In this document: piece by piece, positions 3,758 through 35,109 of the stretch
Numbering within the stretch: position 1 is the first letter of the stretch
Layout: every line of letters begins with the position of its first letter
UHGV virus genome: UHGV-0192935
Strand: one strand, 5' to 3'
DNA length: 35,109 nt
Origin: a virus
The notes under the pieces: model-generated
What the model saw: the letters and a program-made list of their open reading frames with translations, nothing else
What the model was told of the DNA's origin: nothing
Databases searched by the model: none
Program-made: the position numbers and the translations under genes

Positions 3758-4177
3758 ATGAACGTCAAAATCCGAAATGAAATTCAGGCATTAATCCGAA
3801 TTCAGGAACGCAATAACAACGGTGGTGAATTACGCGAGTTTATTTGCGCCCGAAAAGTTGATGATTGTGGTGAAAAGACTTACCTGATTGCTTTCGACCA
3901 TTACAGCATCTGTGCGCGTTATTGCGGCGAAAGCATATCCCGCGCCATTGCATTTGGCGGTGCGTTCAACGTGGATTTATGGGAGTACGTCATGGACCGG
4001 GAATACATCTGCGCATCAGACCCTGAAGCCCGTGAAATGTGGCAGCGTATCTGGCGCGATTACCGGTTAATGGCAAAAGGCTGGGCGCGCTGCTGTTATT
4101 CCTCGCTTGCCCTGAAAGCGGTTCAGTTATCGCTGCGGCATATTCCGGCATCACTGCGCGAGCCTCTGCTGTACTGA
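3758..4177 (+). CDS. Hypothetical early protein (139 aa), Cys-containing
   Basis: AAGGAA SD then ATG. The stop is followed 1 nt later by the next start (coupled). Confidence 0.65.
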   Translation: MNVKIRNEIQALIRIQERNNNGGELREFICARKVDDCGEKTYLIAFDHYSICARYCGESISRAIAFGGAFNVDLWEYVMDREYICASDPEAREMWQRIWRDYRLMAKGWARCCYSSLALKAVQLSLRHIPASLREPLLY

Positions 4178-4477
4178 ATGGTGGCTGACATGAAGTGTAA
4201 TCGTAAGCGCTGGTCACGCGAAGACCGGGAATTTATCGAAGCCAACGTCGGGAAAATGACCGTTGAAGAAATGGCGGAAAAACTGAAAGTCGCCACAACC
4301 GCCCTCCGGGCACATGCCAGAAGGCACGGAATATCATTGTGTGTATACCGAATCAGTGAACACGACAAATATTTATGTCGTGAACTTTATAAAGAAGGAC
4401 TGGATATTCATGTCATTGCCCGAAAGATGGAATTAAGCAATCGAGCTGTATCCAGCATTGTATACGGCGGATATTAA
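4178..4477 (+). CDS. Small early protein with a GcrA-like N-terminal HTH pattern (99 aa)
   Basis: ATG at 4178 directly follows the upstream stop. The segment RWSREDREFIEANVGKMTVEEMAEKLKVATTALRAHARRHGIS resembles the W..E..LL...G.S..IA..LG.T.NAV.GK.HRLG pattern of GcrA-type DNA-binding domains. This is an inference from motif only. Confidence 0.6.
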   Translation: MVADMKCNRKRWSREDREFIEANVGKMTVEEMAEKLKVATTALRAHARRHGISLCVYRISEHDKYLCRELYKEGLDIHVIARKMELSNRAVSSIVYGGY

Positions 4478-4496
4478 TTAACAGGAGCTTTAATTT

Positions 4497-5021
4497 ATGG
4501 CTAAACCAGCAAAACGTATCAAAAGTGCCGCAGCGGCTTATGTGCCACAAAACCGCGATGCGGTGATTACCGATATTAAACGCATCGGGGATTTACAGCG
4601 CGAAGCATCACGTCTGGAAACGGAAATGAATGATGCCATCGCGGAAATTACGGAGAAATTTGCAGCCCGGATTGCACCGATTAAAACCGATATTGAAACC
4701 CTTTCAAAAGGCGTTCAGGGATGGTGTGAAGCGAACCGCGACGAACTGACGAACGGCGGCAAAGTGAAGACGGCGAATCTTGTCACCGGTGATGTATCGT
4801 GGCGGGTCCGTCCACCATCAGTAAGTATTCGTGGTATGGATGCAGTGATGGAAACGCTGGAGCGCCTTGGCCTGCAACGCTTTATTCGCACGAAGCAGGA
4901 AATCAACAAGGAGGCGATTTTACTGGAACCAAAAGCCGTCGCAGGTGTTGCCGGAATTACGGTTAAATCGGGAATTGAAGATTTTTCCATTATTCCATTT
5001 GAACAGGAAGCCGGTATTTAA
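4497..5021 (+). CDS. gam: Gam host-nuclease inhibitor (Ku-like dsDNA-end binding protein)
   Basis: 174 aa. The sequence MAKPAKRIKSAAAAYVPQNRDAVITDIKRIGDLQREASRLETEMNDAIAEITEKF... matches Mu Gam as I recall it. GGAG SD upstream. Confidence 0.93.
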   Translation: MAKPAKRIKSAAAAYVPQNRDAVITDIKRIGDLQREASRLETEMNDAIAEITEKFAARIAPIKTDIETLSKGVQGWCEANRDELTNGGKVKTANLVTGDVSWRVRPPSVSIRGMDAVMETLERLGLQRFIRTKQEINKEAILLEPKAVAGVAGITVKSGIEDFSIIPFEQEAGI

Positions 5022-5119
5022 TACCACCATTAATATTTAATTAATTCACATTCTTTTAATTATGGCGCGATGCGTCAGGGGATTGCTCGCGCCTGAAACA
5101 GATTACTGAGGAATAAAAC

Positions 5120-5650
5120 ATGGTTGATGCAAAAATTCTGAATGGTGTCAGCACATTATTACGGGCTTACGGACGCCTGACCTGCGGGGTTCTGGCTGAA
5201 AAAATGCAGATGCCATCCTCCGCGATGGTGTACTTCCTGCGTGATGCGGTTGATGCCGGAATGCTGACTGAACTTAATGGTTTTTACGACGTACCGCGTC
5301 CCCGTACAGAGCAGCCTGTAAGACGAAACACAACTGAGCAGCCTGCTGTTGATGATGCGGTGTGGTGCAACTGGCGTCGCTCATTACCCTGGGTGGAAGG
5401 TAATACTATCCCCGCGCTGGCAAAAGAGTTTGCAACAGGCGTGCTGACCTGTGAGTCCGTTCACATCGTTGCAGAAGTGGATGACGAGATGTGCAAACAG
5501 GGAATGCCCCGTTTTGTGATGGCTTATATCGATATCCGGCTGGGGCGGTTTATTTGCAGTTCAAGCGCCTGGAATATCACCGACCATGTACTGCGTTATC
5601 TCATTCTTGATTGTTCTCCGGCTCCCGCAGCGGTGCAGGAGGTGGCGTGA
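5120..5650 (+). CDS. Hypothetical early protein (176 aa)
   Basis: GAGGAA SD 6 nt upstream of the ATG. Follows an AT-rich 98-bp spacer after gam. Confidence 0.65.
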   Translation: MVDAKILNGVSTLLRAYGRLTCGVLAEKMQMPSSAMVYFLRDAVDAGMLTELNGFYDVPRPRTEQPVRRNTTEQPAVDDAVWCNWRRSLPWVEGNTIPALAKEFATGVLTCESVHIVAEVDDEMCKQGMPRFVMAYIDIRLGRFICSSSAWNITDHVLRYLILDCSPAPAAVQEVA

Positions 5651-6180
5651 TGTTTTTTAAAACGTCAAATCCCGCAGCACTGCTGGCATGGGACCAGTTT
5701 ATGGCGGACTGCCTGAAACTACGCGAAGAAGCCCGCCATCTTGATAAGGTTCTGGGCTGTGGTTGCCGGTCAGTATTCAGCACAGGTATTGGTGGGCGTC
5801 ATTTTCATGGCGTGAATTTTCCGGGGAATGAGCGCCCCTTCTCGCGGGAGCTGTGGACCGTACAACGGCCCGCATCAGGTAACAGTTGCAGGCCCAGAAC
5901 TTCGCGGATACCTGCTCATCTCAGGGAGCAGGCAAGAGAGCTGGCGAAAATATGGCAGGAGAATATTCCGGTCACTTACGCCCGCACAGATGCTCTCTTA
6001 CCCGCACTGGGACTGGATTTCAGCGCAACAATATTCGGACCTCTCCAGTGGTTCCGTGTTGGTGATGTGATTTACGTCATGACGGGGATGACACCCGCAC
6101 AAGGCCGCATGACTGAAATCCTTTCGGACGAATTTATCCGGGCGCAAAAACAGGCAGAGGTAAACAATGGAAAACAGTGA
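5650..6180 (+). CDS. Hypothetical early protein (176 aa)
   Basis: ATG at 5650 overlaps the upstream TGA (TGATG coupling). The track ORF begins at 5611, but 5650 is the first ATG and is coupled. Confidence 0.6.
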   Translation: MFFKTSNPAALLAWDQFMADCLKLREEARHLDKVLGCGCRSVFSTGIGGRHFHGVNFPGNERPFSRELWTVQRPASGNSCRPRTSRIPAHLREQARELAKIWQENIPVTYARTDALLPALGLDFSATIFGPLQWFRVGDVIYVMTGMTPAQGRMTEILSDEFIRAQKQAEVNNGKQ

Positions 6181-6358
6181 AACATCGTATTCGTGGCTGG
6201 GGAAATTTACCACGGTGAAACAGGAATGCCCGACCTGCGGTAATGAATCCCCTGAATATCTGAAAGAGTGCCCTCATTGTGGCAGGCAGAAATGCAACCA
6301 CTGCGATATGGGCGATGACACGGCGTGCATGAATTGTGAAGGTGAACAGAATGAATAA
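6167..6358 (+). CDS. Small double zinc-ribbon protein (63 aa)
   Basis: Four CxxC pairs (CPTC, CPHC, CNHC, CMNC). Overlaps the upstream stop. Confidence 0.65.
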   Translation: MENSETSYSWLGKFTTVKQECPTCGNESPEYLKECPHCGRQKCNHCDMGDDTACMNCEGEQNE

Positions 6359-6659
6359 TGGCGTATTTACAAAATCCGAGGAGCTGACAGCGTTGTTGAC
6401 GGCGGCTGGTTTTCCTGAAGATGTGATCGGTAACTTTGTGGCGGCGGTATATGCCCCGTCTTATAACCGTGCAATTGATGAGGTCATGGCGTACCGACTC
6501 GGCATTGTTGCTGAGTCACTGAGTCCTCACTGGATTATTGAAAATCTCCGCGCTATTGCTGATGGCAACGATAAATCAGCAGCCGTTGCTGCACTGGATG
6601 TGTTACGGCAAATGAGTCTGAAATTTTATCCTGAATTTATTCTGAGGACCGCAAAATGA
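6351..6659 (+). CDS. Hypothetical early protein (102 aa)
   Basis: ATG at 6351 overlaps the upstream gene end (coupled). The track ORF start 6336 is in the same frame. Confidence 0.6.
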   Translation: MNNGVFTKSEELTALLTAAGFPEDVIGNFVAAVYAPSYNRAIDEVMAYRLGIVAESLSPHWIIENLRAIADGNDKSAAVAALDVLRQMSLKFYPEFILRTAK

Positions 6660-6958
6660 ACAATGAAGATAAATTTACACCCCTTAATATTGATAACGTC
6701 ATGGCTGAAAAAAGGATGCTGGAACGTGTTCGCGCTATCGTTGAATATGGTATTAAGCACGCTCTCACTGCCAGAGAAGTTCGTGACATTATCAACCGCG
6801 AAATGAATCGTCTGGAAACAGTAGTGGCACTGCAAAATGAAACAGCCCGCGAGGAGTACATCCGCCGCAGGCTGGGGTTATCAGACCAGGATATTGTTAC
6901 TGACGCTCATGTATTTGAGGCTTTTGAGATCCGTCAGCATCTGGGTCTAACGAACTGA
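6656..6958 (+). CDS. Hypothetical early protein (100 aa)
   Basis: GAGGA SD then ATG at 6656, overlapping the upstream stop (ATGA). Confidence 0.65.
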   Translation: MNNEDKFTPLNIDNVMAEKRMLERVRAIVEYGIKHALTAREVRDIINREMNRLETVVALQNETAREEYIRRRLGLSDQDIVTDAHVFEAFEIRQHLGLTN

Positions 6959-7163
6959 TAATGTCTTCCATGATCTTTGACAGTTGCAGTTTTTCGCGGC
7001 GGCTTGTTCTCATTGCAGGCGCATCTTTTAAAATCTCTGCTGAAGAGCTGAAAATGGCTTTGCCCTCTTCTGCGGTGATGATCGCCTTCTTCACCAGAAG
7101 GCGCACCAGTGCTGATGCAATCGCATAACCTGCAACATCATAAGGTTGTACATTATTTTCCAT
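6897..7163 (-). CDS. Candidate opposite-strand small protein (88 aa), function unknown
   Basis: ATG (complement of 7161-7163) preceded by GAGAGGA plus a 5-nt spacer on the - strand. 88 codons with enterobacterial-looking codon usage. Lies in the 275-bp gap before gemA and overlaps the 3' end of the convergent + gene by 62 nt. Could still be a shadow ORF. Confidence 0.4.
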   Translation of the reverse strand: MENNVQPYDVAGYAIASALVRLLVKKAIITAEEGKAIFSSSAEILKDAPAMRTSRREKLQLSKIMEDIISSLDPDADGSQKPQIHERQ

Positions 7164-26588: not shown

Positions 26589-27714
26589 TACCGTCACGCT
26601 GCGAACGGATGGCAGGCTTTTTACCGGCTGGACGTCAGTCTCTGTCACCCGCTCGATTGAATCCGTAGCCGGATATTTTGAGCTGGGGGTGAACGTGCCA
26701 CCGGGCACGGATTTATCCGGGCTGGCACCGGGGAAGAAGTTCACGCTGGAAATCGAGGGACAGATTGTCTGCACCGGTTATATCGATTCACGGCGACGCC
26801 AGATGACCGCTGACAGTATGAAAATCACTATCGCCGGACGTGACAAAACGGCTGACCTGATTGACTGTGCTGCCGTTTACAGTGGCGGACAGTGGAAAAA
26901 CCGCTCACTGGAGCAGATTGCGCGTGACCTGTGCACCCCTTATGGCGTTACCGTTCGCTGGGAGCTGTCAGACAAGGAAAGCGCAGCGTCGTTTCCGTCT
27001 TTTACGCTTGACCATTCAGAAACGGTTTACGAAGCGCTGGTGCGGGCCTCCCGCGCACGCGGTGTACTGATGACCAGCAATGCCGCCGGAGAGCTGGTAT
27101 TCAGCCGGGCTGCCAGTACGGTCACTGATGAGCTGATCCTCGGGAAAAATCTGCTGACGGTGGATTTTGACGAAGATTTCCGTGACCGGTTCAGCGAATA
27201 CATTGTCAAGGGTTATGCCCGCGCAAACGGCGCTGACGGAGATGATATTGATGCAGAAAGTATCGTCTCCCGGAAAGGGACCGCCACTGACAGTGATGTG
27301 ACCCGTTACAGACCGATGATCATCATTGCTGACAGCAAAATTACGGCGAAGGATGCACAGGCCCGCGCCCTGCGTGAGCAACGCCGCAGACTGGCAAAAT
27401 CCATCACCTTTGAGGCAGAAATTGACGGATGGACACGCAGGGACGGGCAACTCTGGATGCCGAACCTGCTGGTCACTATTGATGCCTCGAAATATGCCAT
27501 CAAAACCACGGAATTACTGGTCAGCAAAGTCACCCTGATACTGAATGACCAGGACGGGCTGAAAACCCGCGTCAGCCTTGCACCACGCGAAGGCTTTCTG
27601 GTGCCGGTTGAAAGCGACCGCAAATCCAGAGGGGATGGTAATGATGGCGTTGATGCGCTGGTTGAAGATTATTATCGCAGACACCCGGAGAAAACGCCGC
27701 CGTGGAAAGAGTAA
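26581..27714 (+). CDS. P: Baseplate hub protein P (Mu gp44)
   Basis: 377 aa. ATG overlaps the N end. Confidence 0.85.
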
Positions 27715-28295
27715 ATGATTCCGCCCTGAACCGCCTGCTGACACCGCTGATGCGTCGTGTGCGCCTGATGCTTGCGCGCGCTGTTGTTAACGTGATTAAC
27801 GACGGGCGAAAAGTTCAGAACCTGCAGGTCGGTCTGCTGGATGATGAGGAATCCGATGAAGTGGAGCGCCTGCAAAATTACGGACATTTCAGCGTTCCCC
27901 TGCCGGGCGCAGAGGCGCTGATTGCCTGTGTAGGCGCACAACGTGATCAGGGGATTGCTGTTGTGGTGGAAGACCGCCGCTACCGCCCGACAAATCTTGA
28001 ATCGGGTGATGCAGGCATTTACCACCATGAGGGGCATCGTATCAGGCTGACAAAGGACGGACGCTGCATCATTACCTGTAAAACGGTCGAGGTTTACGCT
28101 GATGAAAGTATGACCGTTGACACACCCAGAACCACGTTTACCGGCGACGTTGAGATCCAGAAAGGCCTCAGCGTTAAAGGTGAAAGTGACTTTGCAGGCA
28201 ATATCAGCGCCCCGGATGCCATCATCAATGGCAAATCGACGGATAAGCATATCCACCGTGGCGACAGCGGCGGAACCACGGGGCCGATGCAATGA
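27702..28295 (+). CDS. Q: Baseplate central spike protein Q (Mu gp45)
   Basis: 197-aa ORF. The start is a GTG overlapping the P end; exact start uncertain. Confidence 0.75.
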   Translation: MERVNDSALNRLLTPLMRRVRLMLARAVVNVINDGRKVQNLQVGLLDDEESDEVERLQNYGHFSVPLPGAEALIACVGAQRDQGIAVVVEDRRYRPTNLESGDAGIYHHEGHRIRLTKDGRCIITCKTVEVYADESMTVDTPRTTFTGDVEIQKGLSVKGESDFAGNISAPDAIINGKSTDKHIHRGDSGGTTGPMQ

Positions 28296-28729
28296 CCGAT
28301 TTAGCCATTATCTGGACGAACGGACGCGGCGATATTGCACAGGATGGCATTGATATGCTGACCGACGACAGCCTGACAACCGATGTGACAATCTCCCTGT
28401 TTACAGACCGGCGCGCGCTGGATTCTGACACGCTGCCGGATGGTTCAGATGATCGCCGTGGATGGTGGGGTGACAGTTACCGCGACCGCCCCATCGGTTC
28501 GCGGTTGTGGCTGTTATCACGTGAAAAAGCCACGCCGGATACGCTGGAACGCGCCAGAGGGTATGCCGAAGAGGCGCTGGAATGGCTGAAAACAGCGGGC
28601 CGGGTAAGTGCGATTAACGTCAGAGCGGAACAGTTACATCAGGGCTGGTTATACCTCTACATTGCACTGACATTACCGGATGGTTCCGTTATTCCTTATG
28701 AGTTTAAAGCAGCATTTAACGGGGTTTAA
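28292..28729 (+). CDS. V: Baseplate wedge protein V (gp25/GPW-like, Mu gp46)
   Basis: 145 aa. ATGA overlap with the upstream stop. Confidence 0.8.
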   Translation: MTDLAIIWTNGRGDIAQDGIDMLTDDSLTTDVTISLFTDRRALDSDTLPDGSDDRRGWWGDSYRDRPIGSRLWLLSREKATPDTLERARGYAEEALEWLKTAGRVSAINVRAEQLHQGWLYLYIALTLPDGSVIPYEFKAAFNGV

Positions 28730-29812
28730 ATGGCTTATTCACCACCGACATTATCATCGCTGATTGCCCGTACAGAACAGAATATTGAACAGCGCCTGCC
28801 GGGTAGCTGGCCTCAGGCCCGTGAAAAAACGCTGAGTGCCATTGCTTATGCTCAGGCGGGCCTTGCTGCCGGTTGTCACGAGCATATTTCATGGGTTGGA
28901 CGGCAGATTATCCCGTCGACAGCAGATGAAGATGAGTTGCTGGAGCACTGCCGGTTCTGGGGCGTGCGCCGCAAACAGGCGACAGCCGCCAGCGGCCCGC
29001 TGACTGTCACCACATCGGCAGCGACCACCATTCCTGCCGGTACACGCTGGCAGCGTGCTGATGGTGTGGTTTACAGCCTGGCTGATGCCATTGTGATTGA
29101 CCGTGCAGGAACGACGGAAATTACCGTTACCGCACTGGCTGCCGGTGAAGCAGGAAATACCGGTGAGAATACCCTTTTAACGTTGATCACCCCGGTTGCC
29201 TGTGTTGTTTCCGATGCCATCACTGTAAAAGGGTTTTCCGGTGGGGCTGATATTGAGAGTGCAGCGGAGCTGCTGTCACGGCTGGAATATCGTGTCCAGT
29301 ACCCTCCGTTCGGCGGTAATCAGTTTGATTATGTTCGCTGGGCACGTGAAGTCAGCGGCGTTACCCGTGCCTGGTGTTTTCCGACATGGAAAGGCGGTGG
29401 CACAGTCGGGGTGACGTTTGTTATGGATAACCGGAGCAATATTTTTCCACAACCGGCAGACGTGGAACGCGTGGCGGATTATATCGCCGGTCATACTGAC
29501 CCGATCACCGGTCTGATTGTCGGACAGCCTGACGGTGTAAATGTCACTGTATTTGCGCCAAAGGCAAAGCCGGTAAATCCACGGATTTATATATCACCGA
29601 AGACAGCCGAACTAAAACAGGCTATTACCCACGCCATTAATACCATGTTTTTTAATGAGGTGACGCCGGGCGGCGCACTTGCCCCCTCCCGTATTATCCG
29701 TGCGGTGGCAGGTGTTACCGGTCTGGATGATTTTGAAGTGCGTTTCCCGACAGAGATCCAGCGTTCGGAGAATACGGAACTGTTAACACCGGGGACAATT
29801 GAATGGCTGTAA
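28730..29812 (+). CDS. W: Baseplate wedge protein W (J-like, Mu gp47)
   Basis: 360 aa. Starts 1 nt after the V stop. Confidence 0.8.
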   Translation: MAYSPPTLSSLIARTEQNIEQRLPGSWPQAREKTLSAIAYAQAGLAAGCHEHISWVGRQIIPSTADEDELLEHCRFWGVRRKQATAASGPLTVTTSAATTIPAGTRWQRADGVVYSLADAIVIDRAGTTEITVTALAAGEAGNTGENTLLTLITPVACVVSDAITVKGFSGGADIESAAELLSRLEYRVQYPPFGGNQFDYVRWAREVSGVTRAWCFPTWKGGGTVGVTFVMDNRSNIFPQPADVERVADYIAGHTDPITGLIVGQPDGVNVTVFAPKAKPVNPRIYISPKTAELKQAITHAINTMFFNEVTPGGALAPSRIIRAVAGVTGLDDFEVRFPTEIQRSENTELLTPGTIEWL

Positions 29813-30345
29813 CACCCTATCAGACGGCCTTTCTGCAATTACTGCCGTCAGGGCTTGCCTGGAATAAAAGCCCCGACAGCAAATTATCTGCGCTGGCGCA
29901 GGCCATCAGTGACGTGATTGCCACTGCGGCGGATGATGCGCGGCAAATGCTGCGGGAGCGTTTCCCGTCCACATCCCGCTGGTATCTGGGTGAGTGGGAA
30001 TCATTTCTGGGGTTGCCGGACTGTACAAGCGAAAACGGCACCCTGTCCGAACGCCAGCGGGCTGCCGCGAATAAAATGCGTATGACCGGCAATCTGAGTC
30101 GGCGCTTTTATGAATGGCTGGCTGCGCAGTACGGTTTTACCGTCAGGCTGACGGATTCCACAGAAGGCCAGTGGGTTACGCAGGTCAATATTTACGGTAT
30201 TAAAAATTATCGCAACGCAACGGTGCTGGATAATGTTCTGACGCCGTTACGTGTTTATGAATCGGGTGCGCTGGAATGTTTACTGGAGAAATATAAACCC
30301 GCGCATCAGATTTATAAATTTGTTTACCATGACGGAGATAACTAA
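29803..30345 (+). CDS. R: Baseplate / tail-fibre attachment protein R (Mu gp48)
   Basis: 180 aa. Overlaps the W end and precedes the tail-fibre gene. Confidence 0.78.
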   Translation: MAVTPYQTAFLQLLPSGLAWNKSPDSKLSALAQAISDVIATAADDARQMLRERFPSTSRWYLGEWESFLGLPDCTSENGTLSERQRAAANKMRMTGNLSRRFYEWLAAQYGFTVRLTDSTEGQWVTQVNIYGIKNYRNATVLDNVLTPLRVYESGALECLLEKYKPAHQIYKFVYHDGDN

Positions 30346-31562
30346 TGTTTTATATTGATAACGACAGCGGCGTAACCGTCATGCCGCCCGTATCCGCCCA
30401 GCGTAGTGCTATCGTTCGCTGGTTTTCAGAAGGTGACGGGAATAATGTTATCACATGGCCCGGCATGGACTGGTTTAATATTGTGCAGGCGGAGTTATTA
30501 AACACGCTGGAAGAAGCCGGTATTCAACCGGATAAAACAAAATTAAACCAGCTTGCACTGTCCATTAAAGCCATTATGAGCAATAACGCGCTGCTGATAA
30601 AAAATAACCTCAGCGAAATTAAAACTGCCGGGGCATCAGCACAGCGTACAGCACGTGAAAATCTGGATATCTATGATGCCAGCCTGAACAAAAAAGGACT
30701 CGTTCAGCTAACCAGTGCCACTGACAGCCCCAGTGAAACGCTGGCAGCCACCGCAAAAGCGGTGAAAATTGCGATGGATAATGCCAATGCCCGTCTGGCA
30801 AAAGACCGGAACGGAGCAGATATTCCCAATAAGCCGCTGTTTATCCAAAACGTCGGTTTACGAGAACTCGGCACAAGCGGGGAGAAAATACCGTTACTCA
30901 GTACAGCGAATACCTGGACCAATCGACAAACATTCAGCGGTGGCCTTTCTGGTGAACTATCCGGCAATGCTTCTACAGCTGCAAAATTAAAAACTGCCAG
31001 GAAAATAAGCAATGTGGCTTTTGATGGTTCCTCCGATATCACATTAAAAGCAGGTCATGTTGGTGCGTTTGCCTTAGGGAAAACAGGAAGCACCGTTGCG
31101 AATGATAAAGCAGTTGGATGGAACTGGAGTAGCGGAGCCTATAACGCAGCTATTAGTGGTGCATCAACGTTAATTATTCATTTTTATATGGGAGAAGGAA
31201 GTTGTCCTGCAGCTCAGTTTCGGATTAATTATAAAAATGGCGGTATTTTTTATCGTTCAGCCCGTGATGGTTATGGTTTTGAAGCCGACTGGTCCGAATT
31301 TTACACCACCACCAGAAAACCTTCAGCAGGAGATGTTGGTGCATATACTAAAGCGGAATGTAATTCACGATTTATTACAGGTGTCCGTTTAGGAGGACTG
31401 TCATCTGTTCAGACATGGAATGGTCCCGGCTGGTCTGACAGGTCAGGTTATGTCGTTACGGGTTCAGTTAACGGAAACCGTGATGAATTAATTGATACAA
31501 CTCAGGCAAGGCCAATTCAGTATTGCATTAATGGGACGTGGTATAACGCGGGGAGTATTTAA
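30345..31562 (+). CDS. S: Tail fibre protein S (constant part 30345-30854 fused to the variable part currently in the expressed orientation)
   Basis: 405 aa. gixL (30841-30866) lies inside the ORF. Ends with the motif RPIQYCINGTWYN shared with the inverted S' segment. Confidence 0.85.
   Translation: MFYIDNDSGVTVMPPVSAQRSAIVRWFSEGDGNNVITWPGMDWFNIVQAELLNTLEEAGIQPDKTKLNQLALSIKAIMSNNALLIKNNLSEIKTAGASAQRTARENLDIYDASLNKKGLVQLTSATDSPSETLAATAKAVKIAMDNANARLAKDRNGADIPNKPLFIQNVGLRELGTSGEKIPLLSTANTWTNRQTFSGGLSGELSGNASTAAKLKTARKISNVAFDGSSDITLKAGHVGAFALGKTGSTVANDKAVGWNWSSGAYNAAISGASTLIIHFYMGEGSCPAAQFRINYKNGGIFYRSARDGYGFEADWSEFYTTTRKPSAGDVGAYTKAECNSRFITGVRLGGLSSVQTWNGPGWSDRSGYVVTGSVNGNRDELIDTTQARPIQYCINGTWYNAGSI
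30841..30866 (+). repeat. gixL crossover site
   Basis: ttatccaaaacgtcggtttacgagaa; central dinucleotide tc. Matches the reverse complement of gixR at 22 of 26 positions. Confidence 0.8.
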
Positions 31563-31564
31563 CG

Positions 31565-32098
31565 ATGATGCACTTAAAAAACATTACTGCTGGCAACCCT
31601 AAAACAAAAGAGCAATACCAGCTAACGAAACAATTTAACATCAAATGGCTTTATTCAGAGGATGGAAAAAACTGGTATGAGGAACAAAAGAATTTCCAGC
31701 CAGACACTTTGAAAATGGTCTATGACCATAACGGCGTTATTATTTGTATTGAAAAGGATGTTTCAGCAATTAATCCGGAAGGCGCAAGCGTCGTTGAATT
31801 ACCTGATATTACAGCAAATCGCCGTGCTGACATTTCGGGTAGATGGATGTTCAAAGATGGCGTAGTGGTAAAGCGAACTTATACCGAGGAAGAGCAGAGG
31901 CAGCAGGCGGAAAATGAAAAGCAAAGCCTGCTACAGCTCGTCAGGGATAAAACCCAGCTATGGGACTCACAGCTACGGCTGGGCATCATTTCCGACGAGA
32001 ATAAACAAAAATTAACCGAGTGGATGCTCTATGCGCAGAAAGTCGAATCTACAGACACCTCCAGCCTGCCAGTAACATTTCCCGAACAACCTGAATGA
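31565..32098 (+). CDS. U: Tail fibre assembly protein U (currently expressed orientation)
   Basis: 177 aa. Paralogous to the - strand U' (shared [22 protein letters not shown]...DITANRRAD). Confidence 0.85.
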   Translation: MMHLKNITAGNPKTKEQYQLTKQFNIKWLYSEDGKNWYEEQKNFQPDTLKMVYDHNGVIICIEKDVSAINPEGASVVELPDITANRRADISGRWMFKDGVVVKRTYTEEEQRQQAENEKQSLLQLVRDKTQLWDSQLRLGIISDENKQKLTEWMLYAQKVESTDTSSLPVTFPEQPE

Positions 32099-32101
32099 GA
32101 C

Positions 32102-32128
32102 AAGGCCCGATAGCGGGCCTTAATTTTT
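32102..32128 (+). terminator. Hairpin terminator between the convergent U and U' genes
   Basis: aggcccg-atag-cgggcct followed by taattttta on the + strand. Overlaps the U' stop codon. Confidence 0.65.
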
Positions 32129-32654
32129 ATTCAGGCTTTTGTGGCCATTCGGGATTTGCTGTATCCACACGGCTGACCAGAACGCTGTAGCGTTCCCATG
32201 ACTCCAGTCGTGTGCGTTCCTCATCCGTCGCCATATTCAGCCTGACAGCGCGTTCCAGTGGCTGAATAACGCTTTCAGCTTCAGAAAGCAACGCGACCTT
32301 TTGTGATTCGGCCTGTTGTTGCTGTTCGTCTGCTGTATAAATCCGCTTAACCACAGTTCCGTCCTTAAACATCCACTTCCCTGAATCATCGGCACGACGA
32401 TTGGCTGTTATATCTGGAATCTCAACGACACTAAAGCCTTCGGGATTAAGCGTTGAGGCATCTTTGGTTATGGCAACAATAATATTATTTTCGTCGTATA
32501 CAATCTTTATGGTGTCGTCCTGAAAGTTATTTACTTCCTCATACCAGTTTTTACCGTCTTCGGACCATAACCAGATAACATCAAAATTCTTTGTTAGCTG
32601 ATATTGTTCTTTTGTTTTTGGATTTCCGGACTTAATATTTTTTAAATGCTGCAT
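32127..32654 (-). CDS. U': Tail fibre assembly protein U' (alternative host-range module, silent in this orientation)
   Basis: 175 aa on the - strand inside the invertible segment. Paralogue of U. Confidence 0.8.
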
Positions 32655-32657
32655 AAT

Positions 32658-33530
32658 TTACACCTGTGCGACGTTATACCATGTGCCATTGATGTATTTT
32701 TGTATTGGTCTGAAGATGGCTTCATCATCGCCATCTACTTCACCAATGATTCTTAATCCGGTAATTGCGTGTCCGGCTTTTTCATAACGACCACCACGCG
32801 CCATCAATTGAACAACACGCGTACCCAGGCGAACATCTTTTACATAGCGTGAATCAAAATTCCCCCAGTTGCTGGGCTGTATCTGACCGTTAACAGAAAA
32901 TATTACCGAGTTATCTGTATTTCGCTGGCTATAGAAATGCCATCCTGCCTCATCGCCTAACTCTGCAACTACTGGACGGGTTGAAGCACCCCATAAATTA
33001 AACGTTGCATTCTTTGTGGAGTTGTTGGAGCTGGATAGCGTGAATTTTTTACCATCCCCGGCCTGAATATTTTTAAAAGCAATAGCCACTCCATTCTGAA
33101 AGCGGAATACACGCTGACTATTAGCATAAACATCCAGAATACCGTCTCCATTCTGTTTAAATCCGGTGTCATTATCACCAAGAACAATAGAGCTACCACC
33201 TAACGCATTCGTCGAACCAACTCCAAGACTGCCATTAATGACGGCATTTACCAGAATATTTAGTGCATCCCATTTCAGCGTCATCAGGTCTTTTGTTGTG
33301 GTGCTCTGGCGGCTTCTCCATTTGAAATATTCATTGCCGTTGTCGCCTGTTTCAAACCACATGTATGAATCAGTGTCACCATCAGCATCATTTTTAAATC
33401 CAATCTTCGCCCAGTCAGTATTTCGAATCCAGGCAAGGATTGAGTCATTTTCAAAAGTAAGCCCACCGGACAAGGTATCGCCATTTTTTTGCACGGCGTT
33501 ACCAGCCCTGTTTACCGTTTCCTGTAAACC
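32658..33530 (-). CDS. S': S' variable tail-fibre segment (no start of its own; fuses to the S constant part after G inversion)
   Basis: The - strand frame is open from the gixR core down to the stop at 32658. I checked by hand that it continues the S frame across the gix crossover (junction reads ...FIQNV-GLQETVNRAGNAVQKNGD...), predicting a 460-aa S'. Confidence 0.75.
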   Translation of the reverse strand, partial: GLQETVNRAGNAVQKNGDTLSGGLTFENDSILAWIRNTDWAKIGFKNDADGDTDSYMWFETGDNGNEYFKWRSRQSTTTKDLMTLKWDALNILVNAVINGSLGVGSTNALGGSSIVLGDNDTGFKQNGDGILDVYANSQRVFRFQNGVAIAFKNIQAGDGKKFTLSSSNNSTKNATFNLWGASTRPVVAELGDEAGWHFYSQRNTDNSVIFSVNGQIQPSNWGNFDSRYVKDVRLGTRVVQLMARGGRYEKAGHAITGLRIIGEVDGDDEAIFRPIQKYINGTWYNVAQV

Positions 33531-33544
33531 GAGGTTTTAGATAA
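33519..33544 (+). repeat. gixR crossover site
   Basis: ttcctgtaaaccgaggttttagataa; central dinucleotide ga. Lies 55 bp upstream of the gin start. Confidence 0.8.
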
Positions 33545-33598
33545 TGGCTGTTTCCGGCCTGCATGGCATGATTTGCGCTTTTAAACGGGAGATCCAGA

Positions 33599-34180
33599 GT
33601 GCTGATTGGCTATGTAAGGGTATCAACAAATGACCAGAATACAGACCTGCAACGAAACGCTCTTGTTTGTGCAGGATGTGAACAAATATTTGAAGATAAA
33701 TTAAGCGGAACAAGGACAGACAGACCTGGATTAAAACGCGCTTTAAAGCGTCTTCAAAAAGGTGACACACTGGTTGTCTGGAAACTGGATCGCCTCGGGC
33801 GAAGCATGAAACATTTGATTTCTCTCGTAGGGGAATTACGAGAGCGAGGGATTAATTTTCGCAGTCTTACTGACAGTATTGATACGTCATCTCCAATGGG
33901 GCGTTTTTTCTTCCACGTTATGGGTGCCCTGGCTGAGATGGAACGAGAACTAATCATCGAGAGAACGATGGCTGGACTTGCTGCTGCCAGAAATAAAGGC
34001 CGTATCGGTGGGCGACCACCTAAACTAACCAAAGCGGAATGGGAGCAGGCCGGGCGTTTATTAGCACAAGGAATCCCCCGCAAGCAGGTCGCATTGATCT
34101 ACGATGTGGCCCTGTCAACGCTGTATAAAAAACACCCCGCCAAACGAACGCATATAGAAAACGACGATCGAATCAATTGA
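33599..34180 (+). CDS. gin: Gin serine recombinase (DNA invertase)
   Basis: 193 aa from a GTG start. N-terminal MLIGYVRVSTNDQ with the catalytic Ser context typical of resolvase/invertase family enzymes. C-terminal HTH. Confidence 0.93.
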   Translation: MLIGYVRVSTNDQNTDLQRNALVCAGCEQIFEDKLSGTRTDRPGLKRALKRLQKGDTLVVWKLDRLGRSMKHLISLVGELRERGINFRSLTDSIDTSSPMGRFFFHVMGALAEMERELIIERTMAGLAAARNKGRIGGRPPKLTKAEWEQAGRLLAQGIPRKQVALIYDVALSTLYKKHPAKRTHIENDDRIN

Positions 34181-34274: not shown

Positions 34275-34463
34275 ATGAAATCAATTCGCTGTAAAAACTG
34301 CAACAAACTGTTATTTAAGGCGGATTCCTTTGATCACATTGAAATCAGGTGTCCGCGTTGCAAACGTCACATCATAATGCTGAATGCCTGCGAGCATCCC
34401 ACGGAGAAACATTGTGGGAAAAGAGAAAAAATCACGCATTCTGACGAAACCGTGCGTTATTGA
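34275..34463 (+). CDS. com: Com, zinc-finger translational activator of mom
   Basis: 62 aa with CKNC ... CPRC zinc-finger pairs. Overlaps the 5' end of mom. Confidence 0.92.
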
Positions 34464-35109
34464 GTATGAAGGCCAGATTGTTGGCTATGGTTCAAAGGAA
34501 CTGCGCGTTGAAACCATATCCTGCTGGCTGGCCCGCACAATTATTCAGACAAAGCACTATTCCCGCCGTTTTGTGAATAACTCTTACCTCCACCTGGGAG
34601 TATTCAGCGGACGCGATCTGGTTGGCGTTCTCCAGTGGGGATATGCCCTTAACCCCAACTCAGGTCGTCGTGTCGTGCTTGAAACGGATAACCGGGGCTA
34701 TATGGAGTTGAATCGCATGTGGCTACACGACGACATGCCCCGCAACTCTGAATCACGGGCCATCAGCTACGCGCTGAAAGTTATCAGATTACTGTATCCG
34801 TCAGTGGAGTGGGTTCAGTCATTTGCTGACGAACGCTGCGGACGCGCAGGCGTTGTGTATCAGGCGTCGAATTTTGATTTTATTGGCAGCCATGAAAGCA
34901 CGTTCTACGAGCTGGATGGTGAGTGGTATCACGAGATAACGATGAACGCGATTAAGCGGGGTGGACAACGAGGCGTGTATTTACGGGCTAATAAAGAGCG
35001 TGCCGTGGTGCACAAATTTAATCAGTATCGCTACATCAGATTCCTGAACAAGCGAGCAAGGAAGCGGCTAAATACCAAACTATTCAGGGTTCAGCCATAC
35101 CCTAAGTGA
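34414..35109 (+). CDS. mom: Mom, DNA modification enzyme (anti-restriction adenine modification)
   Basis: Open frame from 34384 (ATG) to 35109. The start is given at in-frame GTG 34414 (231 aa) from my recollection of the Mu Mom length; ATG 34384 (241 aa) is the alternative. The start region lies inside com. Confidence 0.85.

Follow-up and report, generated by a model that had tools for sequence, protein, structure and literature searches.

The question raised by this locus is whether an invertible DNA segment with two imperfectly matching recombination sites is still able to switch the tail fibre of the prophage that carries it. The segment belongs to a 35,109-nt stretch of viral DNA (UHGV-0192935), the whole of which is referred to here as the window and from the first letter of which all coordinates are counted. 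An earlier note on this DNA had proposed a host-range switch of the Mu type and had considered that the differences between the sites might affect its inversion frequency. As outlined below, the region is, with high confidence, a functional Gin/gix invertible G segment of a Muvirus prophage of Escherichia coli. The host of the window prophage is E. coli Z0117EC0036, which carries it beside lptG. Over window positions 1-25000 the DNA shares 97-98% identity with Mu, D108 and other Muvirus phages, with the Mu and D108 matches covering 95-96% of this stretch, and the close similarity to and collinearity with Mu are as expected of the genus Muvirus. Two further Muvirus features are the presence of com and mom at the right end (34275-35109) and varied insertion, the identical prophage being found at three different chromosomal sites. 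The segment itself displays the features of its class, namely an adjacent invertase gene, paired 26-bp sites, the half-site bases required by the invertase, an enhancer (recognised by sequence), a split fibre gene and the occurrence of both orientations.

A split fibre gene between two gix sites

The two sites, given on the plus strand, are gixL (30841-30866; TTATCCAAAACG-TC-GGTTTACGAGAA) and gixR (33519-33544; TTCCTGTAAACC-GA-GGTTTTAGATAA). Comparison of TTATCCAAAACGTCGGTTTACGAGAA (30841-30866) with TTATCTAAAACCTCGGTTTACAGGAA, the reverse complement of 33519-33544, bears out the description of an imperfect inverted repeat with an identical core: 22 of the 26 bases are shared, the mismatches fall at site positions 6, 12, 22 and 23, and the central dinucleotide is TC at 30853-30854 on the left and GA at 33531-33532 on the right. 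The resemblance ends at the edges of the sites. The size of 2704 bp assigned to the segment is correct as the outer site-to-site span, and the invertible DNA between the core dinucleotides (30855-33530) measures 2676 bp. Relative to Mu gix, gixL has three mismatches and gixR has one. A search of the whole window with two degenerate patterns, each allowing up to three mismatches, returned only gixL and gixR as gix-like sites, and neither pattern had any match in 100 dinucleotide-preserving shuffles. Multiple inversion of the Min or shufflon kind, with more than two sites, was rejected as these whole-window scans (up to three mismatches) gave just two.

Outside the invertible DNA lies the constant N-terminal part of the fibre, Sc (30345-30854, plus strand, 170 codons), whose codon 170 (GTC) holds the TC crossover dinucleotide. 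Sc contains a Pfam Phage_fiber_2 domain (residues 113-153) and matches Mu Sc at 169 of 170 residues, the exception being V170 (L in Mu). In the window it is joined to the expressed variable part Sv (30855-31562, plus strand, residues 171-405), which consists of a short repeat-type proximal part followed by the tip; the fibre currently assembled (30345-31562) has the 405 aa previously reported and contains a Pfam gp37_C domain at residues 246-340. Co-expressed with this Sv is a U'-type tail fibre assembly protein (31565-32098, plus strand, 177 aa; Pfam Caudo_TAP, E 1e-36) that is 97% identical to Mu U'. The minus strand carries the silent cassette Sv' (32658-33530, 290 codons plus stop), without a start codon or promoter of its own, and the gene for a U-type assembly protein (32127-32654, 175 aa; Caudo_TAP, E 2.5e-36) that is 97% identical to Mu U, silent in the window and expressed after inversion. 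The frame continuity claimed for the alternative fibre S' holds, since fusion of 30345-30854 with reverse-complemented 32658-33530 yields 1383 nt that read through 460 codons to the final stop without an earlier one. The locus thus has the split-fibre architecture of two opposed promoterless cassettes, each in frame and each with its own assembly gene. In the window, the Sv' frame is closed on its upstream side by a TAA that lies in the outer half-site of gixR, 2 codons before the crossover. Between the convergent assembly genes, a GC-rich hairpin followed by a T run (32102-32121, plus strand) was picked up by a consensus scan and may be a terminator-like site for the current S-U' transcript; in the same kind of scan, terminator-like sites were no more numerous in the region than in shuffled sequence.

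Just to the right of the segment, gin (33599-34180, plus strand) encodes a serine DNA invertase of 193 aa, with catalytic Ser9 in a YVRVST motif and with Pfam Resolvase (E 7e-50) and HTH_7 (E 2e-17) domains. The protein is 99.5% identical to Mu Gin and 100% identical to SfMu Gin over 193 aa. A recombinational enhancer is predicted by homology inside the 5' end of the gene (33617-33688), a stretch that aligns with cin nt 19-90, the annotated enhancer of the P1 record, and lies in a part of the window (33588-33721) that is base-for-base identical to Mu. This element is Fis-dependent in Mu and P1, and enhancer function and Fis dependence are likewise expected of 33617-33688. A consensus promoter scan gave no gin promoter overlapping gixR above the threshold. 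By eye, a GATAAT is seen within the outer half of gixR, with a poor -35 region.

In the proposed mechanism, Sc and the upstream expression signals remain outside the segment, and each of the two opposed promoterless cassettes inside would encode the C-terminal part of a fibre and, after it, the assembly protein belonging to that part. Gin would pair gixL with gixR, cut both sites at the central TC/GA dinucleotide and rejoin them after strand exchange, for which Fis bound to the enhancer in the 5' end of the invertase gene would be needed, as in Mu and P1. Inversion would fuse either cassette in frame to Sc, and a lysogen population would yield two virions, one with a Mu S'/P1 S'-type tip (the state of the window) and one with a P2 gpH/P1 S-type tip. 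By analogy, the two orientations would differ in host range.

Both orientations in identical prophages

Detection of one orientation only, which the earlier note had regarded as the sign of a dead inversion system, is not what is observed. Five complete E. coli genomes carry the prophage with 100.0% identity over window positions 1-25000, two of them with the segment oriented as in the window and three with the segment flipped. When 30855-33530 was reverse-complemented in silico, the resulting window had 0 mismatches over 9765 nt with E. coli 21KM1392 and MEI3O-23, in which the prophage occupies the same lptG-adjacent site as in the window's host, and 2 mismatches over 9765 nt with 20AH011. 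The predicted junction is present at 100% over 1010 nt in the three flipped genomes, so that the same Sc is fused to either cassette among sister genomes, and the assembled 460-aa fibre gene is annotated in the flipped ones with the 175-aa U gene directly downstream. Their recombinant sites, TTATCCAAAACGTCGGTTTACAGGAA on the left and TTCTCGTAAACCGAGGTTTTAGATAA on the right, are exactly as predicted and retain the core-adjacent G of gixL. Because the sites are polymorphic at positions 12 and 22-23, the exchange can be confined to site positions 13-21 (30853-30861), a 9-bp interval that includes the core. Among IMG/VR sequences, a metagenome contig with 99.97% identity to the window combines an Sc-Sv junction with an Sv'-rc(Sc) one, showing that both junction types are present in one sample. 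Sites with the core-adjacent G are also joined in IMG/VR to at least four different cassette starts, of either cassette type; the SfMu-type relatives in this collection are 86-99% identical, which is too loose for calling them the same element and makes them supportive only. Their use as proof that a SfMu-type segment exists in both orientations was dropped because of these identities. Judged by the genome comparisons, the switch works despite its imperfect repeats and is not the dead one that they might have suggested, and its inversion rate may be lower than in Mu.

An alternative concerning the catalyst is that the segment is inverted in trans by another invertase resident in the host (e.g., one of the Pin type, from a P2-like or e14-like prophage), its own Gin contributing little. 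In its favour, invertases of the Gin, Cin, Pin and Hin types can substitute for each other, further invertible cassettes are common, with something similar to the G-segment region in 1526 of 5426 E. coli genomes, and the cassette together with the first ~118 invertase codons shows 97% identity to those of a P2-like prophage. However, the resident gin is intact, 99.5% Mu-identical and provided with a Mu-identical enhancer region, with no sign of inactivity, and action in trans would change the catalyst only and leave the mechanism as it is. This alternative is considered improbable, and Gin itself, with Fis, probably carries out the inversion. Far less credible is that the two orientations derive from RecA-type homologous recombination between inverted repeats or from assembly artefacts. 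Inverted repeats can in principle allow homologous inversion, and the fibre ends share a 40-nt, 78% inverted repeat (I1); yet the longest unbroken identity between the sites is 9 bp, a length at which RecA would not recombine them efficiently, no similarity extends beyond the edges of the sites, and the exchange maps in the 9-bp interval that holds the core and not at the longer I1. Artefacts are opposed by the finding of the three flipped genomes in separate records from different countries (two Swiss and one Japanese), and complete-genome assemblies are not confused by 26-bp repeats. Hardly tenable at all is a frozen switch, in which the imperfect sites, especially the core-adjacent C to G change, would abolish inversion by Gin and lock one host range: the same G is found in SfMu, whose induced and infection-grown lysates had the same host range, and its authors suggested that inversion might be reduced or lost (PMC4406740), and Gin is sequence-specific at half-site positions 3-2 (PMC3985619), but at one and the same chromosomal site the identical prophage occurs in either orientation without a single mismatch outside the flip, the G persists in the recombinant site, both junction types coexist in the metagenome contig, the G-bearing IMG/VR sites have varied cassette partners, and CG at positions 3-2 is tolerated by Gin (PMC3616721).

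For a switch operated by Gin at gix, the bases required in the half-sites (A/T at positions 6-4 and CC, CG, GG or TG at positions 3-2) are present: positions 6-4 read AAA in all four half-sites, and positions 3-2 read CC in three and CG in one. CG is one of only four combinations that Gin tolerates at positions 3-2, and any base is tolerated at positions 10-7, as determined with a hyperactivated Gin catalytic domain on zinc fingers and symmetric sites and not with native Gin on gix (PMC3616721). All four site mismatches are at tolerated positions, and none prevents inversion. In gixL, the outer half-site, in which a G replaces the C adjoining the core, is identical to that of SfMu gixL, and the two outer half-site mismatches are point differences common to SfMu. 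The inner half-site is of the type of P1 cix and P2-like prophages and, together with the downstream sequence, is common to a P2-like prophage; its two mismatches arrived with a foreign cassette of this P1/P2-like-prophage type. The inner half of gixR is of the Mu type, the outer half is one base off Mu (A for G), and the whole site is identical to SfMu gixR.

As the four half-sites are not alike, they are also reshuffled by inversion. In the window state, both deviant half-sites (the outer one with the G and the cix-like inner one) are in gixL and gixR is almost the Mu consensus, and in the flipped state each site has one deviant half-site. Forward and reverse rates could differ if the quality of the whole site matters for the binding of Gin dimers or for synapsis. 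A switch with unequal rates, intrinsically biased to one fibre type, is considered unlikely. It would differ from Mu, for which a roughly 1:1 mix is reported in lysates of induced lysogens. The orientation count of two versus three among the five genomes is uninformative on bias.

Fibre tips and related inversion systems

By homology, the expressed tip belongs to the Mu S'/P1 S' type, with 90% identity between residues 241-405 and residues 324-488 of Mu S' (PDB 8JU3) and with a match to P1 S' over the final 59 residues. On the same kind of evidence, the silent cassette combines a Mu S-like shaft with a tip of the P2 gpH/P1 S type. In Sv', the first ~100 residues are ~96% identical to Mu S (PDB 5YVQ), and the final 191 residues share 94.8% identity with P2 gpH and 96-98% with Mu-like and P2-like Yersinia phages. 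The labels are reversed relative to Mu, with a tip of the G(-)/C(-) type and a U'-type assembly protein accompanying the 405-aa fibre. The earlier statement that host range cannot be told from the sequence stands for the actual hosts, as SfMu illustrates, and does not stand for the tip type, which is assignable by homology. The SfMu tip is 96% identical to that of Mu S', yet SfMu relies on the O-antigen of Shigella flexneri, a species on which lysates of Mu fail to plate (PMC4406740); even 96% tip identity is thus no guarantee of the same receptor.

Both variable parts end in a shared motif, as the earlier note reported, the C-terminal 17-mers that it quoted having 11 of 17 residues in common. 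They are not otherwise unrelated, as it had also stated, since the last ~100 residues of the two can be aligned by BLASTP at 33% identity (E 3e-7) and a second motif, SR[FY][IV]..VRLG, is common to both. The footprint of the first motif, RPIQ..INGTWYN, in the DNA is I1 (arms 31509-31548 and 32672-32711). The two fibres of Mu (S and S'), of SfMu and of P1 all have RPIQ..INGTWYN as well, the shared C-terminal motif being a signature of the whole family and not a peculiarity of this locus. U and U' are 69-80% identical in their N-terminal domains and 35% identical in their C-terminal parts, which suggests that the motif could be a docking or folding element. On the fibre residues contacted by the Mu assembly protein, secondary descriptions in the open-access literature go no further than to say that its N-terminal domain binds the distal fibre and remains on the virion.

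The gene order S-U-U'-S'-gin-com-mom, the architecture of the 26-bp sites and the TC core are all as in Mu, in line with the backbone (97-98% over 25 kb), Sc (1 of 170 residues different) and U and U' (97% each). In contrast to the 22 of 26 bases shared here, the two 26-bp sites of Mu, which lie within 34-bp inverted repeats (PMC4406740), match perfectly, and the outer site-to-site span is 3084 bp in Mu versus 2704 bp in the window. The window's S'-type-tip fibre is 83 aa shorter than that of Mu and has a different proximal part, and the other fibre keeps the Mu S shaft with a tip stretch just 16-36% identical to Mu S. With the Mu reference record as the standard, the window is in a G(-)-like state. 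The best overall phage match to the region is SfMu (92% identity, 81% covered), in which Gin and gixR are identical, gixL has the same outer half-site with the core-adjacent G, and the expressed fibre also has an S'-type tip. Unlike in the window, the inner half-site of SfMu gixL is of the Mu type (CAGGAA), hence the fewer mismatches in the SfMu pair, the fibres have 488 and 510 aa, and the silent tip is of another type (43% over the last ~96 residues). Inversion has not been demonstrated in SfMu, whereas for the window prophage it is documented by comparative genomics.

The C segment of P1 (Cin/cix) follows the same principle, with the enhancer inside the invertase gene in both systems. Each of the two tips has a counterpart there: over the last 59 residues, the expressed tip agrees almost exactly with P1 S' [C(-)], and the silent tip is matched by P1 S [C(+)]. 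The inner half of the window's gixL, GGTTTACGAGAACTCG, resembles that of P1 cix, GGTTTAAGAGAACTCG. The P1 segment differs in its size (4.2 kb), in its core (TT/AA versus TC/GA), in its Sc of about 450 codons (from record coordinates), which is unrelated to Mu Sc, and in the location of cin on the opposite side, with its 3' end at cixL. In P2-like E. coli prophages with a Pin-type invertase (e.g., that of strain 2015C-3108), the match to window positions 30833-33954 (~97% identity) spans both cassettes, gixR and the first ~118 invertase codons, and the inner half-site (CGAGAA) is the same; however, these prophages have a P2 H-type constant part, a 661-aa fibre, a P2-like baseplate and tail gene set, a different outer left half-site (TTATCGAATACC) and an invertase gene whose 3' part diverges. 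The Hin/hix system of Salmonella likewise has a serine invertase of this family, 26-bp sites built around a 2-bp core and an enhancer that lies within the invertase gene and depends on Fis, but Hin flips a promoter and not coding cassettes, and its locus is not a phage tail-fibre gene. The cores of hix and gix have been compared (PMC3985619).

Meaning of a switch with imperfect sites

In all, this locus is an ordinary, mosaic representative of a well-known inversion system that requires no new biology, and its main value lies in this clean negative, i.e., familiar biology suffices. For annotation, the promoterless cassette that RefSeq records as a "hypothetical protein" or truncated pseudogene should read as an alternative fibre end. 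Specialists may find two minor points useful. The natural site mismatches serve as markers that bound the exchange to 9 bp and reveal the origin of the site differences. In addition, in natural isolates a gix site with a G for the C beside the crossover dinucleotide still recombines, which agrees with the specificity data on engineered Gin and bears on the question left open by the SfMu paper.

The switch and its components

The invertible G segment is bounded by two 26-bp inverted sites, gixL at 30841-30866 (TTATCCAAAACGTCGGTTTACGAGAA, core TC at 30853-30854) and gixR at 33519-33544 (reverse complement TTATCTAAAACCTCGGTTTACAGGAA, core GA at 33531-33532), which differ from each other only at site positions 6, 12, 22 and 23 (22 of 26 bases identical) and lose their similarity abruptly beyond the site edges. 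No further gix-like site was found when two patterns, the gix sequence of Mu and a degenerate consensus for invertase sites, were run over the entire window with at most three mismatches allowed, and neither pattern gave a match in 100 dinucleotide-preserving shuffles. As assembled, the fibre gene S (30345-31562, 405 aa) consists of the constant part Sc (30345-30854) and the cassette Sv. Fusion of Sc to the reverse complement of the silent cassette Sv' (32658-33530, minus strand) produces 1383 nt, i.e., 460 codons and a stop, without any internal stop. The crossover falls in codon 170 (GTC), and because both cassettes begin with GGT TTA the reading frame is preserved by construction. A minus-strand TAA in the outer half of gixR shuts the frame two codons upstream of the crossover, and the silent cassette thus lacks its own start. 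All numbers of the earlier note hold here, including the 22/26 repeats, the TC/GA core, the 405-aa S and the in-frame, stop-free S' of 460 aa.

The chromosome of E. coli Z0117EC0036 contains the region at 100% identity, next to lptG, and positions 1-25000 of the window share 97-98% identity with Mu, D108 and further Muvirus phages. Baseplate genes come first and are followed by S, tfa, a second tfa and Sv' (both on the reverse strand), gin, com and mom. Gin, a protein of 193 aa with Resolvase and HTH_7 domains, is 99.5% identical to Mu Gin. The stretch spanning the gin start (33588-33721) matches Mu base for base, and 33617-33688 aligns to the enhancer annotated within P1 cin. With Gin, the gix sites and the enhancer region all found, every component of the classical Gin/gix/enhancer system is present and, as judged from sequence, intact.

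Several smaller features accompany these genes. A -10-like GATAAT lies at 33538-33545, ~55 nt before gin and within the outer half-site of gixR, and a -35 matching it would sit in the inner half-site and be altered by inversion (TTCCTG vs TTCTCG); a consensus scan called no promoter at 33538-33545. Between the two convergent assembly genes, 32102-32121 forms a GC-rich hairpin with a T run 3' of it on the plus strand only, and transcription may terminate there with lower efficiency in the flipped state. The window finishes with com and mom (34275-35109), which overlap, and its end coincides with the mom stop codon. The 60 nt directly beyond this point in the source genome are identical in all four sister loci compared, even at a different insertion site in one of them, and are thus still prophage; we take them to resemble the Mu right end.

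Both orientations in public genomes

A 1010-nt query representing the predicted inverted left junction, Sc fused to Sv', was searched against complete E. coli genomes and matched three of them (21KM1392, MEI3O-23 and 20AH011) over its full length at 100.0%. All three are annotated with a 460-aa fibre gene followed by a 175-aa assembly gene, and carry the 177-aa assembly gene and the other cassette on the opposite strand. When 30855-33530 of the window is reverse-complemented, 21KM1392 and MEI3O-23 show no mismatch in 9,765 nt and 20AH011 shows two, as compared with ~1,960 mismatches each against the uninverted window. The first 25 kb of the prophage are 100.0% identical across the three flipped genomes, the window's host and E148, and the lptG-adjacent prophage site is common to 21KM1392, MEI3O-23 and the window's host. 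An identical prophage at the same insertion site indicates that the flip took place within one inherited prophage. The recombinant sites match the prediction exactly (TTATCCAAAACGTCGGTTTACAGGAA and TTCTCGTAAACCGAGGTTTTAGATAA). The differences between the parental sites at positions 12 and 22-23 place the exchange within positions 13-21 (30853-30861), an interval of 9 bp that includes the core.

The IMG/VR metagenome contig IMGVR_UViG_3300023289_000038 is 99.97% identical to window 27072-33544. Its left junction is Sc-Sv, and its right end consists of Sv', a recombinant site and 36 nt of reverse-complemented Sc; in the region 3770-6497, its G segment is thus flanked by Sc on both sides. This contig is an assembly chimera, expected only with reads of both orientations in that sample, and betrays a mixed-orientation population. 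Together, the flipped sister genomes and the mixed junctions of the contig show that the switch is live, or was very recently. The earlier note had taken the detection of a single orientation as the result that would count against it; public genomes hold both.

Related switches are seen elsewhere. Five places in E. coli 22KM0354 (NZ_CP151071.1) match the region, including a Mu-like copy near 889,752 in the window's orientation and another near 1,491,072 with the flipped Sc-Sv' junction, and two related switches thus stand in opposite states within one genome. In RefSeq, the silent cassette (32658-33494, minus strand) is a 278-aa "hypothetical protein" starting from an internal GTG, and the records of the flipped genomes list the other cassette as a pseudogene for a truncated tail fibre. 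These labels are annotation artefacts of promoterless alternative gene ends.

Cassette identity and mosaicism

By homology, the cassette labels are reversed relative to Mu. In alignments to Mu S and S', the expressed tip is of the Mu S' type and the silent shaft of the Mu S type. The expressed fibre is composed of the Mu Sc, a short repeat-type proximal part and residues 241-405, which share 90% identity with the tip of Mu S', the G(-) fibre (PDB 8JU3); the last 59 of these hardly differ from the end of P1 S', and the paired assembly protein is 97% identical to Mu U'. The silent cassette opens with ~100 residues that match the Mu S shaft (PDB 5YVQ) at ~96% identity. Over its last ~190 residues, identity is only 16-36% to Mu S, against 94.8% to the P2 gpH C-terminus and 96-98% to fibres of Mu-like and P2-like Yersinia pestis phages. 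The final 59 residues are almost those of P1 S, the C(+) fibre, and the assembly protein of this cassette is 97% identical to Mu U. Mu-like Yersinia phages reportedly depend on LPS core (PMC10434027). Despite its 96% identity to Mu S', the fibre of the Shigella phage SfMu uses the O-antigen of S. flexneri, a species on which Mu lysates failed to plate (PMC4406740). Because a Mu S'-like fibre can thus use a different receptor, host range should not be assigned from sequence, as the earlier note held, although tip type can be.

The C-terminal 17-mers of the two fibres, RPIQYCINGTWYNAGSI and RPIQKYINGTWYNVAQV, have 11 of 17 residues in common, and RP[IV]Q..ING[TI]WYN also ends Mu S, Mu S', both SfMu fibres and both P1 fibres. 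The two variable parts are not, as the earlier note had it, otherwise unrelated: over their last ~100 residues they show 33% identity (E 3e-7), and a second motif, SR[FY][IV]..VRLG, is common to both. The two assembly proteins are 80% identical at residues 1-40, 69% at 41-105 and 35% from 106 to the end. We infer that the conserved fibre end is a docking or folding element for the conserved chaperone domain of the assembly protein. A 40-nt, 78% inverted repeat (arms 31509-31548 and 32672-32711) is simply the DNA footprint of the shared fibre-end motif.

The classical literature has long documented that Mu, P1, P2 and cryptic prophages exchange fibre modules. A module ~97% identical to window 30833-33954 occurs in many E. 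coli genomes, including O145:H28 and O111:H8 strains, and spans 4001-7121 in the sequence of one P2-like prophage locus. It comprises the two cassettes together with gixR, the enhancer and the invertase gene up to codon ~118; its right-hand junction lies inside that gene, not at gixR. In P2-like prophages, the module is joined to a P2 H-type constant part inside a P2-like tail gene set. The prophage itself (window 1-25000, 100.0% identical) occupies three different chromosomal sites in five E. coli genomes from dogs, a horse and soil in Korea, Switzerland and Japan: three copies adjoin lptG, one has tonB and yciI on either side, and one disrupts a UTRA-domain gene beside yidE. This distribution points to a recently active transposable phage.

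Inversion between imperfect sites

In contrast to the window, Mu has two identical 26-bp sites. SfMu shares gixR with the window, and its gixL combines the same G next to the core with a Mu-type inner half. The SfMu host range was unchanged between induced and infection-grown lysates (PMC4406740), and its authors raised the possibility of weakened or lost inversion. However, the lineage studied here carries that G and does invert, as sister genomes exist in both orientations. Inversion with this base fits specificity profiling of the catalytic domain of Gin, for which half-site positions 3-2 may be CC, CG, GG or TG, positions 10-7 any base and the core TC or GA (PMC3616721; PMC3985619). The remaining two mismatches (CGAGAA vs CAGGAA) fall at inner half-site positions 9-10 and are carried by the cassette. 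P2-like E. coli prophages have the same CGAGAA inner half and downstream sequence as the window gixL, and P1 cix inner halves resemble it; the sites are Mu-like overall, with a cix-like inner half in gixL. Among 15 Mu-type Sc-gixL junctions in IMG/VR, position 12 is C in seven and G in eight, and each recovered partner site differs from its gixL at at least one position, which makes imperfect pairs the norm and the perfect Mu repeat the exception. That unequal half-sites intrinsically bias the switch is unlikely.

In all, the region belongs to the Mu G-segment class as an ordinary, functional member whose cassette pair is mosaic. What it adds is modest: proof from comparative genomics that imperfect sites leave the switch working, even when they include the base change that raised the suspicion of a dead switch in SfMu.
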